This document shows positions 39,843-50,300 of a stretch of 64,000 bases of DNA, piece after piece. Each line of letters begins with the position of its first letter. Within the stretch, counting starts at the first letter, position 1. The translations under genes were made by a program, and so were the position numbers. The notes under the pieces are model-generated. The model ran no database searches and had not been told where the DNA came from. It saw nothing but the letters and a program-made list of their open reading frames with translations. This stretch comes from a virus (lineage: Duplodnaviria; Heunggongvirae; Uroviricota; Caudoviricetes): IMG/VR virus record IMGVR_UViG_3300023174_000034. The stretch is one strand, 5' to 3'.

Positions 39843-40942
39843 TGTTTGATGCTATCAAACCTTTGTTGGATGCAGGTATCATCAACGAAGACACCCGTCA
39901 GGCTATTAACGAAGCATGGGAATCTAAGATTAACGAAGCACGTGAACAAGCACGTGCCGAGCTACGCGAAGAATTTGCTACTCGTTACGAGCACGACAAG
40001 AGTGTCATGGTTGAAGCCCTTGACAGCATGGTTACCGAGGCCTTGTCTGTAGAAATACAAGAATTTGCAGAAGAAAAGAAAGCACTAGCAGAAGACCGTG
40101 TACGTTTCCAACGTACCATGTCTGAAAATGCTGGTAAGTTTGATCAATTCATGGTTAGCAAGCTAGCAGAAGAATTGAAAGAACTACGTGCAGACCGCAA
40201 GCAGTATCAAGAAGGCATCAAGCGTCTTGAGAAGTTTGTTATCACTGCATTGGCTGAAGAGATTCAAGAATTTGAAACAGATAAGAAAGCCGTGGTAGAA
40301 GCTCGTGTACGTATGGTGTCAGAAGCCAAACAACAACTAGCTGATCTAAAAGGTCAGTTTATTGCACGTAGCGCCAAGTTGGTCAAAGAAGCTGTTGCTA
40401 CTAATCTAGACACAGAGATCACACAACTCAAAGAAGACATCCAGTCAGCACGTGAAAACATGTTTGGCCGTCGTTTATTTGAAGCATTTGCTAGCGAATT
40501 TGCAGTCACTCACTTGAATGAGAACCGTGAAATTCTAAAACTTCGTGCAGAGAAATCTGCTACAGAGCAAGCACTAGTAGAAGCAAAAGCTCAAGCTGAA
40601 GCAAAGACCGCTTTGGTGGAAAGTAAAGATAAAGAAATTAAGATTATCAAAGAGTCAACCACTCGCAAGGAAGTCCTTGCAACATTGTTGAAGCCTTTGA
40701 ACAAGGAGAAAGCCGCAATCATGAGCGATCTTCTTGAATCAGTGCAAGCTGAAAAACTTCAGTCTGCATTTGATAAGTATCTACCAGCAGTATTGAATAA
40801 TACATCTGCCCCTAAGCAAGCTCCTAAAGCTGTGCTTAGTGAAGGACGTTCAGCAGTAACTGGTGATAAGACTGCTAAGGTCAGCGCAATTGATGATACC
40901 ACTAACGTGATTGAAATCAAGCGTTTAGCAGGGCTAAAGTAA
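39842..40942 (+). CDS. gp22: Prohead core scaffolding protein, T4 gp22-like
   Basis: Coiled-coil Glu/Ala/Lys-rich, FGRRLFEAF motif; between gp21 and gp23. Confidence 0.85.
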   Translation: MFDAIKPLLDAGIINEDTRQAINEAWESKINEAREQARAELREEFATRYEHDKSVMVEALDSMVTEALSVEIQEFAEEKKALAEDRVRFQRTMSENAGKFDQFMVSKLAEELKELRADRKQYQEGIKRLEKFVITALAEEIQEFETDKKAVVEARVRMVSEAKQQLADLKGQFIARSAKLVKEAVATNLDTEITQLKEDIQSARENMFGRRLFEAFASEFAVTHLNENREILKLRAEKSATEQALVEAKAQAEAKTALVESKDKEIKIIKESTTRKEVLATLLKPLNKEKAAIMSDLLESVQAEKLQSAFDKYLPAVLNNTSAPKQAPKAVLSEGRSAVTGDKTAKVSAIDDTTNVIEIKRLAGLK

Positions 40943-40969
40943 AACCCTAAACAGGAGAAGGAAAAAGAA

Positions 40970-42151
40970 ATGACAACCGCACTACTAGAGAGCCGTTGGG
41001 GCGAAACCAAAGATGCCCTGTTAGAAGGCCTAAATGGTTCTAAAAGAACTACAATGGGTGTAATCCTAGAGAACACCCGCAAGTACCTGGCAGAAAATGC
41101 AACAGGTGGCGCTACAGCTTCCAGCAACGTAGCTACACTGAATCGCGTGATTCTTCCAGTAATTCGTCGTGTTATGCCTACCGTTATTGCTAACGAAATC
41201 GTTGGTGTTCAACCAATGACAGGCCCAGTTGCACAAATCCATACGCTACGTGTACGTTATGCTGACACAGTCAGTGCAACTACAACTGCTGATGGCGCAA
41301 CAGCAGGTGACGAAGCACTAAGTCCATTCAAGATTGCTACTGCTTACTCTGGTTCCAGTTCAACTTCTAGAGCTGTTAACACAGCCACCCTAGAAGGTGT
41401 ACCAGGTAACCGTATTAACGTTCAAATCTTGAAACAAGTCGTTGAAGCCAAAACCCGCAAATTGTCTGCACGTTGGACATTTGAGGCTGCTCAAGACGCA
41501 CAAGCCATGCATGGTTTGGATGTTGAAGCAGAAATCATGGCAGCATTGGCTCAAGAAATCACAGTTGAAATCGACCAAGAAATCCTAGCTAGCCTACGTT
41601 CTTTGGCCGCAACTGAATTCACATATGATCAGTCAAGCGTTTCTGGTACAGCTACATTCGTTGGTGACGAGCATGCCGCATTGGCAGTTCTAATCAACCG
41701 TACAGCTAACTTGATCGCTCAGCGCACACGTCGTGGCGCGGCAAACTGGGCAGTTGTATCTGCTGAGGCTCTAACAGTTCTTCAGTCTGCTACAACTTCT
41801 GCTTTTGCTCGCACTACAGAAGGCACTTTCGAAGCACCTACAAACACCAAGTTTGTTGGTACATTGAATGGCGCAATGCGTGTATACGTTGACAGCTATG
41901 CTAACACAGGCACAGCAGTTCTTATCGGTTACAAAGGTTCTAGCGAGGCAGATGCTGCCGCGTTCTATTGCCCATACGTACCGTTGATGAGCTCTGGTGT
42001 TGTTCTTGATCCAGCTACTTTTGAACCAGTAGTTGGCTTTATGACACGTTATGGCTATGTGGAATTGACAAACACAGCAAGCTCATTGGGCAATGCTGGT
42101 GACTATCTAGGCAAGATTGGTATCACTTCTGGTACTTTGTCTTTCCAGTAA
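40970..42151 (+). CDS. gp23: Major capsid protein, T4 gp23-like
   Basis: IRRVMPTVIANEIVGVQPMTGP, VEAKTRKLSARWTFEAAQD, EIDQEI, FYCPYVPL, FEPVVGFMTRYG. Confidence 0.97.
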   Translation: MTTALLESRWGETKDALLEGLNGSKRTTMGVILENTRKYLAENATGGATASSNVATLNRVILPVIRRVMPTVIANEIVGVQPMTGPVAQIHTLRVRYADTVSATTTADGATAGDEALSPFKIATAYSGSSSTSRAVNTATLEGVPGNRINVQILKQVVEAKTRKLSARWTFEAAQDAQAMHGLDVEAEIMAALAQEITVEIDQEILASLRSLAATEFTYDQSSVSGTATFVGDEHAALAVLINRTANLIAQRTRRGAANWAVVSAEALTVLQSATTSAFARTTEGTFEAPTNTKFVGTLNGAMRVYVDSYANTGTAVLIGYKGSSEADAAAFYCPYVPLMSSGVVLDPATFEPVVGFMTRYGYVELTNTASSLGNAGDYLGKIGITSGTLSFQ

Positions 42152-42190
42152 TCACAAAAGTAAAATCGACTCAGGGATGGGAAGAGCAGG

Positions 42191-42216
42191 AAAGCGCCGC
42201 AAGGCGCTTTTTTGTT
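42191..42216 (+). terminator. Intrinsic terminator after the major capsid gene
   Basis: AAAGCGCC-GCAA-GGCGCTTT followed by TTTGTT. Confidence 0.9.
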
Positions 42217-42222
42217 GACTGT

Positions 42223-42915
42223 TTAACCTCGACCCAGTATTTTTCTATTGCCAAATGCTATGTTGGTCCACACAGGCGGTGTTGTTTTTTCTAGCACAAG
42301 TTCTATTTCGTAACAACCATTACTGGGATGCATTTCTCCAGCACTGACAGTCTTTGCATTGCGGCCGTCATTGTGTGTTACACCGTCTACTGTGTTGCCG
42401 TCGACTACTACTTGTTTTACAACCCATCCGTCGTTCCAGTCTTGATCGTTGTCGCACATGTGTCTTATGCGATAGCTCAGATGCGGCAATGCTTGCCATA
42501 CTTCTTCTAATAGATTGAATGGTGCATAAAAGCGTTTGTGATCTCGGTTGTATCTGCTGGGCAAGTCAGGCTTTTTCTCGTACAGCCACACATGTGGTAC
42601 ACAGATGATCATGTGCCCACCAACTTTCAGCACACGGTGCCATTCTTGTAGTGCAGTTTTCCAATCAGTCACATGCTCGTACACATGGCTGGCGTACACA
42701 GTGTCCTGGCTTTGATCTGCAAAAGGCAAATGCACACCGTCATATCCAGGATAGTCAATGTCCACACCAATCACATGCGGGAAAATAGTTTCGCAACCTT
42801 GTCCGCCATCGTAGCCTATTTCTAGGGCATTGGCACCAAAGTATTTTCTAAAGAAACCAGACTGTTGTTTCTGGTCAAAAGATTTGGCAGTTTCAGGACC
42901 TATTTTTCTATTCAT
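42223..42915 (-). CDS. Class I SAM-dependent methyltransferase (Methyltransf_11-like)
   Basis: ALEIGYDGG motif I, GVD, LPFADQSQDTVYASHVYEHV, EWHRVLKVGGHMIICVP. Confidence 0.88.
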   Translation of the reverse strand: MNRKIGPETAKSFDQKQQSGFFRKYFGANALEIGYDGGQGCETIFPHVIGVDIDYPGYDGVHLPFADQSQDTVYASHVYEHVTDWKTALQEWHRVLKVGGHMIICVPHVWLYEKKPDLPSRYNRDHKRFYAPFNLLEEVWQALPHLSYRIRHMCDNDQDWNDGWVVKQVVVDGNTVDGVTHNDGRNAKTVSAGEMHPSNGCYEIELVLEKTTPPVWTNIAFGNRKILGRG

Positions 42916-42932
42916 ACAAATAATTATCAGTT

Positions 42933-42965
42933 AAAAAAATACCCGAAGCATTTCTGCTCCGGGTA
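42933..42965 (-). terminator. Intrinsic terminator on minus strand, just upstream of the methyltransferase
   Basis: UACCCGGAGCA-GAAA-UGCUUCGGGUA (11 bp with one G-U, GNRA loop) followed by U7. Confidence 0.85.
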
Positions 42966-43000
42966 CCAACTAAACAGGATGCTGTCTGACTAGCACCTGT
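42933..43000 (-). ncRNA. Candidate ~68-nt small RNA (hairpin, single-stranded linker, terminator)
   Basis: Bounded by a sigma70 promoter and an intrinsic terminator, with no credible ORF; sequence ACAGGUGCUAGUCAGACAGCAUCCUGUUUAGUUGGUACCCGGAGCAGAAAUGCUUCGGGUAUUUUUUU. Confidence 0.65.
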
Positions 43001-43004
43001 ATGT

Positions 43005-43033
43005 ATTATATAGCAGACACAACTACAAAGCAA
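43005..43033 (-). promoter_or_regulatory. Sigma70-type promoter driving the candidate sRNA
   Basis: Minus strand TTGCTT (43033-43028), 17-nt spacer, TATAAT (43010-43005). Confidence 0.75.
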
Positions 43034-43042
43034 ACTATTAGG

Positions 43043-43132
43043 TAAATATAATGTTCACTTGACACTCAAGTAACTTATGCGGTACCCACCGCGTAGGCCT
43101 AGAACGCTAAATCATATTAAGGAGAAAAACAA
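43043..43132 (+). promoter_or_regulatory. Late promoter plus structured three-way-junction 5' leader
   Basis: TAAATA at 43043-43048; P1 UGUUC/GAACG, P2 ACUUGA/UCAAGU, P3 CUUAUGCGGU/ACCGCGUAGG; then TAAGGAG RBS. Confidence 0.6.
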
Positions 43133-43876
43133 ATGGGACGTCCTCTAAATCATAAATTCTTTGGCGACTTAAATTACGCCGCAGGCGGTGCAATGGTCGG
43201 TGGTGAAGGTGTTGCTAGCGTAGCCGCAGTCACAGGCTTGACTGGCATGGCCGCAAGTGGTCCGTTTGCAATTCTAGCCGCAGATATCACTGCACCAGAA
43301 ATTGCCGGCGGTACAAAACCAACATTGACATTCACTGCTACCAGCGCAACAGCAGGTACAGTTGCAGTTGTGACACAAGGTTCAGGTTACACATCAGCAC
43401 CAACAGTGACCGTTCGCGGCTCACTAGCAGGCGGTAGTACCACAGCAACTCCAGCAGCCACATTGACCACAACTCGTTTGAATGCTATCATTCCACAAGT
43501 TCGTATTGCTGGCACAAACCGTACCAGCGGTAATGACATCATTGCACAAAAAGGTAGCAAGCGTTTTCAAGTACAGTCACAAGACGGCTCGGGTGTTTGC
43601 AAGCTAGTGCCACGTACACCAGCAGCCGCACTAGAAATGGCTATTGCGGCAACAGACAGCCAGAGCAACACATACTGGGTAAAAAAGATCAGCAAGAACA
43701 AAGTTCAACTGATAAGAAACACCCTAGTAGGCTCAACCTGGGATATCGCTGATGGCGATACAGCAAAATGGACTATCACTGGTTCAGCTGTGGCTCCAGT
43801 TGGCGGCGGAAACCCATCAGCAACTGATGGCCCATCAGTGGTCAGCATCGGCACAGTGTTACTAAACAACGCTTAA
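43133..43876 (+). CDS. Virion structural protein (possibly abundant head decoration), with a GSGYTSAP module
   Basis: Late promoter, strong RBS, own terminator; Ala/Thr/Gly-rich; IIAQKGSKRFQV and YWVKKIS motifs. Confidence 0.6.
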   Translation: MGRPLNHKFFGDLNYAAGGAMVGGEGVASVAAVTGLTGMAASGPFAILAADITAPEIAGGTKPTLTFTATSATAGTVAVVTQGSGYTSAPTVTVRGSLAGGSTTATPAATLTTTRLNAIIPQVRIAGTNRTSGNDIIAQKGSKRFQVQSQDGSGVCKLVPRTPAAALEMAIAATDSQSNTYWVKKISKNKVQLIRNTLVGSTWDIADGDTAKWTITGSAVAPVGGGNPSATDGPSVVSIGTVLLNNA

Positions 43877-47399: not shown

Positions 47400-50300
47400 A
47401 TGGCCGTAACGCGGATTAAGAACAATCAGATCACAGACGCAACGATCTTTGCCAACGTAAAAATCGCTCCAGGCACAATCGTCGGATCGTTGTTCAACCC
47501 AGATGTAACAATCAATTCTAACATTGCGATTGTTGGTAACCTCACGGTTTCTGGCAACACAAACACAATCAACAGTACCAATACCTTGGTCAATGATCCA
47601 CTTGTTATTTTCAACAATGGATACACAGGTACTCCTAGCTATGATGTGGGTATTCTAGTAGATCGTAATCTGCAACCCACTAGTCCAACCAACTACGGCA
47701 GTTTGAACTCTGCCTGGGTCTGGCGTGAAAGCGACGGTAGCTTTGAAGGTTTACTCACAACAGAAACTGGAACCACACAAGGTGTTATTGCTCGATCTGC
47801 TTATGCCAATGTGATTGTTGGCAACACCACAATCAGGACCAATGGTGTTGATGCCAGCGTGGTTGAAGCAGTTGACACAGGTTCCGGAGCACTGCAAGTA
47901 AAGGGTGGTGCCAGCTTTACACAGAACGTGCAAATTGGCGGACGTGGATCTGTATTTGGTGCCAACACCGGTGCAGTTGCAATCAACGCCAACATTCCAA
48001 TTGTACAAATTACCACTGAGTCCAGCACACGCTACGGCCTGATGATCACAGACACCACCAACAATGGTGCGTTTGCTGTCAAGACAGGATCCACATCAGG
48101 TGCTGAAATACATACTTTTGGTGGAACCAACAACGATATACGTATCCAGCCAGATCGTAAAAAGAGTATCTGGCTGCCAGCTGCCAATGCCAGCGTACTG
48201 GTAGACAACAATCTCAACAGCTCAAGTGCAAATATTGGTGCACTGGTTGTGACAGGATCAGGCGGTGCAGGCATTGGTGGCAACTTGAACACAGGAACCA
48301 GTGCCAGCTTTGAAAGCAAGAACGTTTATGTTCAAAGCAACAAGACCAATGATGTTGTGATTGGCAAGAATCAACTCAAGACCGGCATTGGTGCAAACGT
48401 AACAGCCATTGGTGCTGTGCAAGGTATAACAAGCATTGGCGAAAGCTCTACCATAGTTGGTATGGGTGCAGGTGCCGGTGCTCCTGGCATCAACTCTACC
48501 TTTGTGGGCAAGAGTTCGGGTAATATCACAACCGGATCCGACAATCAATTTTTTGGTCGCAATGCAGGTCGTTTGGTCACATCTGGATCATATCATACCA
48601 TACTTGGTAGCCATGATGGCAACACCATTGCATCGCTGAACAATCAAGTTATTATTTCAGACGGTGCAGGCAATCCTCGCATCAACATCGACAACACCGG
48701 TAATGTTTGGGTAGTCAGCACAAACCCAGCCACTGACTATAGAACTGGTGCGCTGGTAGTGAATGGTGGCGTGGGTGTTGGTGGCAACTTGTATGTGCAA
48801 GGTCAAGTTTTCTTCAGTGGGCAAACACGGATTTCCAGTACACCATACTCATTGATGATTGCTGGTAATACTGCTGTTGAGCAGTTGAGTACCAACTCTG
48901 TCATCTACGGTCAGCAGATTGGCAGTGGCACAGGAGTTGCCACACCGTTTGGTGTGCGAGCAACCATATACGGTGCAGATGCATCTAACACACCAACCAC
49001 GTCAGATGATGTCACACTGATTGGTTATCGCACAGGCTACAGCGGCCCTGGTGCAAGAACCACAGCGGTGGGATCCGGCGCTGGTTACAGCCTATTGGCA
49101 GGCGCTACCAACAATCAACTGTTTGGATTCAATTCAGGCAACCTGATAACCACAGGCAACAACAATGTTATCCTTGGCGCCAACACAGGCTCAACTATTG
49201 CCACGCTGAACAACAGGATCATCATTGCAGATGGTGCTGGCACATCACGCATCAGTATTACAGACACTGGTGCTACAGAAATCACCAGCACAGTTGAAAC
49301 TGATTCAATTGGTACAGGTGCCTTGATTGTTGACGGCGGCCTTAGCGTACAGAAAAACACACGTATCGGTGGCAACCTTACTGTCACTGGCAACCTAAAC
49401 GTAATTGGTACTGTAAGCACAATCAACTCAACTTTTATGACTGTGGTTGATCCTATTATTGAAATGGGTGGCCTGGCCAATGCCAGCGTACTAACAACCA
49501 ACGATGGCAAAGACCGTGGACTGCGTATGCACTATTATGAAGGTGCTGATCGTAGCACTTTCTTGGGCTGGCAAAATACCACAGGTAACTTGGTCTACAT
49601 GCAAGCCGCTGTAGAAAGTGCTGGCAATGTATTCACAGGTACATATGGTAGTGTACAATTTGGTCAGCTGAAACTCAGCAACGTCAACCCAAGTACCAGC
49701 CAAACCACAGGCGCACTACAAGTTGTGGGCGGAATAGGCACACAAGGTAGATTGACTGCCAACAACGCAGTAGTAGACAACAATCTTACTGCCAGCGGCA
49801 CAGGTGCTCTTATTACATTTGCGCCATCTGGTTCAGGTTATGTAACAATCAATCCAGCAACCACTGGCACAATTGACAACATGACCATTGGTGGTAGTAC
49901 ACCAGTAGATGCTACGTTTGTTAATGCAACAGTCACAAATACTATGACCATCACTGGCAGCGGTAATGTTGTGATGGCACCGGCTGGTAATTTAAGATTG
50001 AACCCAACCACAACCGGCGATATAAACAATCTTTATATTGGTAACATTACTCCACGTCAAGGTGCATTCACTGCGGCCAACATTGGTCAAGACCTGGTAA
50101 TGAAAGCATTCAGTTCAAACTCGGTACTGTTTATCAGTCCAACTGGTAACCTGAGTGTTGATCAAAAGCTAAACGATTTCAACTTCCAACGTCAGACTGG
50201 CAACACAATTTCTACTGTGAGTCTGAGCGTTGGTACTAACGGTGACTTCACAGGCACTGACACTCTAAACATCTACTATCAAGGTGATGCCTACCTGCCA

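Follow-up and report, generated by a model that had tools for sequence, protein, structure and literature searches.

What is encoded by the short minus-strand segment at 42933-43033, downstream of the capsid gene of this jumbo phage? The window, that is, the whole stretch of 64,000 nucleotides that was analysed, was read in a preliminary description as holding here a stand-alone small RNA (sRNA) gene, driven by the host RNA polymerase and acting in trans. An attenuator or riboswitch for the adjoining methyltransferase gene was offered as the alternative. The first proposal is supported by a conserved promoter, structure and terminator and by covarying targets. Judged by comparison of related loci, the sRNA is most likely a previously undescribed phage regulator of the phage's own genes, and not a methyltransferase riboswitch.

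Anatomy of the predicted sRNA gene

The promoter TTGCTT-N17-TATAAT, the 5' hairpin, the linker, the 11-bp terminator with a GAAA loop and a G-U pair, and the U7 tract are all present as first described. They are arranged as follows.

43028-43033, minus strand: sigma70-type -35 element TTGCTT; TTG-N3 lies exactly 17 nt from TATAAT in 19 of 19 copies
43005-43010, minus strand: -10 element TATAAT, with a 17-nt spacer to the -35 element; kept in 19 of 19 copies
42978-42997, minus strand: hairpin 1, stem GGUGCU/AGCAUC with an 8-nt loop; among copies, G-U is replaced by A-U and U-A by A-U
42991-42984, minus strand: loop of hairpin 1, AGUCAGAC
42983-42990, minus strand: seed 1, GUCAGAC(A), the complement of (A)UGUCUGAC, which lies at the start codon of t62; UCAGAC is invariant in 19 of 19 copies
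42968-42979, minus strand: seed 2, UCCUGUUUAGUU, a 12-nt complement of the t62 Shine-Dalgarno (SD) region and a 10-nt complement of the gp23 leader
42933-42965, minus strand: intrinsic terminator with an 11-bp stem, GAAA loop and U7; variable in sequence, with the stem preserved in all copies

The arms of the terminator stem, which contain one G-U pair, occupy 42965-42955 and 42950-42940, and the U7 tract 42939-42933; in a scan of the window from 38 to 50 kb this terminator is the strongest. The minus-strand RNA has a minimum free energy of -30.9 kcal/mol (z -6.8), not equalled by any of 200 shuffles, and the plus-strand fold of the same region is weaker (-25.8 kcal/mol). The promoter is missing from the list of the window scan because TTGCTT matches TTGACA at only three of six positions. 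It is nevertheless beyond chance, TTG-N3, the 17-nt distance and TATAAT being kept in all 19 copies while the sequence of the spacer varies.

From standard promoter spacing, the +1 of the predicted sRNA is expected at about 42998-42997; ACAGG begins 4 nt past the -10 element, at 43000. The hairpin as originally drawn has to be divided: its inner stem, GGUGCU/AGCAUC, is conserved, and its outer stem, ACAGG/CCUGU, is found in only 4 of the 19 copies and was abandoned. Because of this rarity of the outer stem, and because the expected +1 cuts into it, the linker is taken to be largely single-stranded; in folding, the conserved stem leaves CCUGUUUAGUU mostly unpaired. The 8-nt seed proposed earlier, UUAGUUGG, gives way to the conserved seed UCCUGUUUAGUU (42979-42968) plus the loop.

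A search of the sRNA region against Rfam returned no family at gathering score, and no SAM, SAH or preQ1 class was matched; the preliminary description had likewise recognised no SAM or preQ1 class. The best weak match, NsiR1, is driven by the terminator and scores 24.6 bits where 39 are required; relaxing the search to E 10 gave only weak, terminator-driven matches. Possible resemblances to Spot 42, GcvB, 16S rRNA and, on the plus strand, a CsrB-type CAGGAUG play no part in the interpretation.

Homologues and conservation

A search for homologues downstream of gp23, suggested at the outset, yielded 19 distinct copies of the sRNA, all at the same locus behind gp23 in freshwater phages of about 350-375 kb whose major capsid proteins (MCPs) are 81-100% identical. 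The copies were found by pattern searches of viral and metagenome contigs and by protein-anchored look-ups; TATAAT formed part of some search patterns and not of others. The layout of a stand-alone gene (promoter, short non-coding body and U-tailed intrinsic terminator) recurs in every copy, and common to all 19 are a TTG-type -35 element, the 17-nt spacer, TATAAT, the loop UCAGAC, a linker UCCUGUU(U)AG and a covarying terminator.

The copies fall into three structural types, and across these conservation is confined to the promoter, the UCAGAC loop, the linker and the structure of the terminator. Type A copies share an invariant core of 28 nt, which exceeds the length of either duplex predicted with a phage mRNA. 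The closing U-A pair is replaced by A-U in L338 and L411; a wholly different 7-bp stem surrounds the same loop core in L209, L325 and L329; L340 and L347 form the third type. Type-B sRNAs have the loop AUCAGACG. When each copy is folded separately, all terminators form despite their differing sequences. Per-copy folds were preferred over alignment A4, because it misaligns types B and C, and a pair count on alignment A5 was set aside, since the count was fitted to the model and included three chance matches. The cells paired and the covariation score lie above those of all 500 shuffles, counts of a kind that relatedness inflates.

An exact copy of the 19-nt sRNA core was not found in the bacterial genomes of GTDB, and no description of the family was found in Rfam or in the searchable literature, which did not extend to the supplements of Fremin 2023 (PMC10690425) and Weinberg 2017 (PMC5737381). 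In public RNA runs the locus was seen in Logan contigs only, with shares of at most 0.18. What looked like a second copy in L303, and two further pattern matches in the complete genome G002, fall within coding sequence and were taken as chance. In three metagenome contigs (L290:121, L292:385 and L314), TATAAT is followed by TGCTAGTCAGAC and then by a different conserved sequence. This element is probably unrelated to the sRNA, the matching seed and the locus both being absent.

Complementarity to the start region of t62

The gene t62 is a conserved, basic early gene of 108-111 amino acids with a Lys/Ala-rich tail. In G002 (complete, 355 kb) it lies at 49.6 kb (49618-49944, 108 amino acids) with its own TTGACA-17-TACAAT promoter, about 190 kb from the sRNA gene at 239.2 kb. 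The 410 TIRs of this genome that were scanned include one gene that is high for both seeds, t62, and its start region is, besides the sRNA gene, the only place in G002 where both complements stand in the right order. By exact complementarity t62 ranks first and gp23 second among the 410. By cofold energy they rank 3rd and 14th, and shuffled RNAs reach better best scores; the ranking by whole-domain cofold was dropped as a discriminator of targets, energy alone not being significant.

The linker is complementary over up to 12 nt to the SD of t62, and the loop over 8 nt at the start codon, spanning this codon and codons 2-3 (AUG UCU GAC). Four orthologues, P0066, P0124, P0015 and P0085, have AACTAAACAGGAG, a variable 8-nt spacer and then ATGTCTGAC, which allow 12 perfect linker pairs and 8 loop pairs in a colinear, antiparallel arrangement. 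Their proteins are 78-84% (P0066, P0015) and 74% (P0085) identical to that of G002. The net energy of the sRNA-t62 cofold is about -19 kcal/mol, and the rough chance of both t62 sites is about 1e-5 per genome, given an SD.

The most telling single case is GROS21 scaffold_9 (an ENA contig of 351,294 bp), where an AG is inserted in the sRNA seed and a complementary CT at the corresponding position of the t62 leader. The duplex there has an energy of -13.9 kcal/mol with the cognate seed versus -7.2 kcal/mol with the standard seed; this is a single compensatory event, and sRNA-t62 pairs are seen directly on one contig in two cases only. Drift of the t62 site next to the SD is seen in the GROS21 phage and in G002, whose sRNAs nevertheless match gp23 without a mismatch; this suggests that the sRNA is constrained by both targets. 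For phages of the window type the link to t62 is indirect, P0066 and P0124 being tied to window-type sRNA loci by contigs of equal size (371,055 and 261,074) and by one shared sample; the window itself shows the sRNA gene and the gp23 site. For the sRNAs of types B and C no link to their own t62 genes was found.

Relatives lacking the sRNA serve as controls. In G006 (100% complete), G009 and G010 pattern searches detected no copy, and the covariance model gave no match better than E 0.15; the t62 start regions of these three are without both sites, and the gp23 leader of G006 has no site.

The t62 family has 820 homologues. The protein begins with MSDK in 80 of the closest 120 and mostly not in the distant ones. 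It is predicted to fold into a small alpha/beta domain with a disordered tail. Comparison with the PDB gave no fold match (best Z 3.3), which does not establish a new fold; it has no PHROG, Atlas scores do not exceed 0.78, and in BFVD it matches only uncharacterised Caudovirales proteins. It is possibly a DNA-binding or an internal head protein. A paralogue at L362:2569 (G002 at about 329,230) has its own sigma70 promoter and is without both sRNA sites. In L415 (950-975), L401, L516 and L523 a conserved hairpin stands at the 5' end of the t62 mRNA, immediately ahead of the seed site.

Complementarity to the gp23 leader

The second predicted target lies directly upstream of the capsid gene in the window.

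40970-42151, plus strand: major capsid protein gp23 (PF07068, E 7.6e-99)
40947-40956, plus strand: predicted site of pairing in the leader of gp23, CUAAACAGGA, at -23 to -14 relative to the AUG (40970)

The encoded protein is 66-69% identical to the MCPs of the jumbo phages PA5oct, Paride and Phosso. At 40947-40956, CTAAACAGGA complements the sRNA linker over 10 nt. The site covers the distal AGGAG; a second SD (AAGGA) is predicted to be open whether the site is blocked or not, so that any effect of the sRNA on gp23 could be of either sign. No conserved complement of the sRNA loop was found near gp23, and the site accounts neither for the loop nor for the last two bases of the linker. Sites of the gp23 type are expected by chance about 0.13 times among 410 genes, chance matches being favoured because seed 2 contains the anti-SD UCCU.

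Among 38 distinct MCP loci with a readable downstream region, some of which were found via the leader pattern itself, the site is present in 17 of 17 that carry the sRNA and in 0 of 21 that do not. One locus, L209, appeared at first to have the site without the sRNA and proved to carry a divergent copy with an intact seed. In L346 the leader site is present, a different gene directly follows gp23, and the contig ends 193 nt further on. The label of site plus sRNA needs about five changes on the MCP tree, at least two of them forced by well-supported branches; no bootstrap tree groups the sRNA-positive loci as one clade, and the tree is weakly resolved. A conserved hairpin-forming motif at 40922-40950 (plus strand), across the stop codon of the scaffold gene and adjoining the gp23 SD, occurs in sRNA-positive and in many sRNA-negative relatives.

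The anti-SD UCCU in seed 2 also invites the view that the main targets are host mRNAs with ribosome-binding sites of the AAACAGGA type, the sRNA serving as a general anti-SD agent of host shutoff and the matches in the phage being secondary. The type A core, longer than either phage duplex, points the same way, and lambda PreS and VpdS do regulate host mRNAs (bioRxiv 10.1101/2024.10.31.621285). We regard this as unlikely: the compensatory indel and the pattern of presence and absence tie the seeds to the phage sites, and no exact copy of the 19-nt core was found in the GTDB genomes. Additional host targets may nevertheless exist.

Less probable still is that the sRNA is a protein-binding decoy, or that CTAAACAGGA is a DNA or RNA site for a protein, kept separately at three places. 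An invariant loop on variable stems does resemble a protein-binding loop, and at the gp23 site several sRNA-negative relatives have TAAATA, a motif that precedes late genes, where sRNA-positive leaders have TAAACA. However, a protein site explains neither the colinear, antiparallel complement of the loop at the t62 start codon nor the matched 2-nt indel, and a sigma70 promoter is already present just upstream of t62. The gp23 site reads TAAAAG, TAATTA or TAATCA in yet other relatives and so does not represent a conserved promoter.

The region downstream of gp23

The gap between gp23 and the freshwater-2 RNA (42152-43050 in the window) is an insertion hot spot in the window and its relatives, ranging from about 85 bp to several kb. 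Methyltransferase genes of two kinds, HNH genes and further accessory genes have been inserted in it. Two features border the sRNA gene.

42223-42915, minus strand: accessory class I SAM methyltransferase (PF08241), between two back-to-back terminators
43056-43135, plus strand: Rfam freshwater-2 RNA (RF02980, 56.3 bits against a gathering score of 49.9), divergent neighbour of the sRNA

Since the gap gathers insertions, the segment might be read as a bidirectional terminator pair with a promoter for hot-spot genes, its short transcript being functionless. This is very improbable, as neither the invariance of loop and linker amid a variable spacer, stem and terminator nor the covariation with the targets would be explained.

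The ATG of the methyltransferase, at 42915, follows the sRNA U-tract by 17 nt. The gene is absent from 15 of the 19 loci, where the U-tract abuts a second, oppositely facing terminator; the remaining copies are accompanied by one of two methyltransferases, which are 40% identical to each other. On one contig from a public run the gp23 terminator is joined directly to that of the sRNA, and on another 505 nt of the methyltransferase are deleted and the sRNA region is kept. As judged from these arrangements, the methyltransferase is not part of the sRNA unit. An attenuator or SAM/SAH riboswitch for this gene, to which the short distance to the ATG and an alternative fold pairing the 5' end with the start-codon region (predicted for the window sequence alone) might point, is almost certainly wrong, because in 15 of 19 copies the gene is missing and the sRNA terminator backs directly onto another one, and neither an Rfam riboswitch match, a known aptamer class, a conserved antiterminator nor a consistent place upstream of a regulated gene was seen. 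The sequence upstream of the methyltransferase (42916-42927, minus strand) contains no SD; TAATTA, which resembles the late motif TAAATA, stands 5 nt before the ATG (TAACTA in L004) and is absent from the L009/L288 type. The methyltransferase mRNA may be a near-leaderless late transcript.

The freshwater-2 RNA follows a TAAATA late-promoter motif and leads a gene of 247 amino acids. Its core pattern has at least 120 matches in IMG/VR, and since many of them lie just downstream of gp23, the motif seems to serve these phages as a leader of late genes. Four Logan contigs with neighbouring run identifiers (L427-L430) begin at one and the same point, 55 nt ahead of the start codon ATG of the gene at 43133; this common start, inside the freshwater-2 RNA, is either an assembly break or an RNA end. 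Another Rfam element, Polynucleobacter-1 RNA (31198-31333, plus strand, 116.9 bits), occurs in the window, inside a jumbo phage; it was described from Burkholderiales and freshwater (PMC2864571). G002 carries a phage pstS (L367:11059-12626) whose closest relatives are from Burkholderiales/Oxalobacteraceae (62-70%), followed by an unannotated gene with a start like that of a signal peptide. The host is probably betaproteobacterial, as judged from the PstS of G002 only.

Proposed mechanism

Taken together, the locus probably encodes an sRNA of about 66 nt, transcribed by the host sigma70 polymerase, that would act in trans by base-pairing with two phage mRNAs, those of t62 and gp23. It most likely represses t62 and binds the capsid mRNA as a two-site antisense RNA in the manner of C4.

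Host sigma70 RNA polymerase would make the sRNA from early in infection. The single-stranded linker UCCUGUUUAGUU would nucleate on the AU-rich stretch and the SD of t62, and the hairpin loop would then pair over the start codon and codons 2-3, blocking loading of the 30S subunit. A block of initiation is proposed because antisense RNAs that cover the SD and AUG act in this way. As t62 is likewise preceded by a sigma70 promoter, the effect of the pair would be to cap its synthesis or limit it in time. The same linker would pair over 10 nt with the gp23 leader, leaving the second SD free; this binding would either damp premature translation of the capsid protein or let the capsid mRNA titrate the sRNA. 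A timing circuit made of RNA only, in which the late capsid mRNA sponges the sRNA and so couples t62 synthesis to capsid output, is a tentative extension that we consider doubtful.

Comparison with known systems

The closest functional parallel is the C4 RNA of P1 and P7 (RF01695), a phage RNA of about 77 nt, in which two single-stranded regions pair with two sites in a phage mRNA, one of them occluding the ribosome-binding site (PMC5320573; PMC8198154). The sRNA resembles it, in complementarity only, in that loop and linker match two sites at the t62 ribosome-binding site. The differences are considerable. C4 has three stem-loops, whereas the sRNA has one hairpin, a linker and a terminator; C4 is released by RNase P from a longer precursor, whereas the sRNA has its own promoter and terminator; and C4 regulates the immI operon in which it is encoded and has its role in lysogeny, whereas the predicted targets of the sRNA are a gene about 190 kb away and the capsid leader. 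The RF01695 covariance model did not match the sRNA up to E 10.

PreS/LPR1 of lambda and VpdS of VP882 are likewise short stand-alone genes with a terminator and poly-U, short seeds and several targets. PreS was shown mainly on host mRNAs, and both come from temperate phages (bioRxiv 10.1101/2024.10.31.621285), whereas the complementarity found here suggests that early and late genes of the jumbo phage itself are the targets. The sRNA has the hallmark of the Hfq class, a conserved single-stranded seed complementary to distant TIRs, and might use Hfq; no phage hfq was found in five records. For action of an sRNA on a structural gene the closest precedent is SviR of the Vibrio cholerae PLE satellites, a trans-acting RNA with distinct seeds that lowers translation of a putative phage structural protein (bioRxiv 10.1101/2022.04.08.487710). 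SviR belongs to a satellite and is directed against the helper phage, whereas the sRNA is encoded by the phage itself. In T4, timing control of genes e, soc, 49 and I-TevI is exerted by mRNA hairpins that occlude the SD or AUG (PMC3014915); these act in cis within the transcript, whereas the sRNA would act in trans as a separate RNA. On present comparisons, the sRNA would work like C4 but falls outside the C4 family on model, fold and genomic arrangement.

Significance

Most of the phage sRNAs whose targets have been defined belong to temperate phages and satellites, and the conserved sRNAs observed in giant phages lacked known targets (PMC11512511). For the present family two predicted targets in the phage can be named, compensatory variants occur in nature, and relatives without the sRNA serve as controls; the start region of t62 as an sRNA target is new in this analysis. 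If the proposal is true, t62, a member of an uncharacterised family, is singled out as a protein whose dose matters, and jumbo phages whose capsids are of the gp23 type would link early and late gene expression by trans-acting riboregulation.
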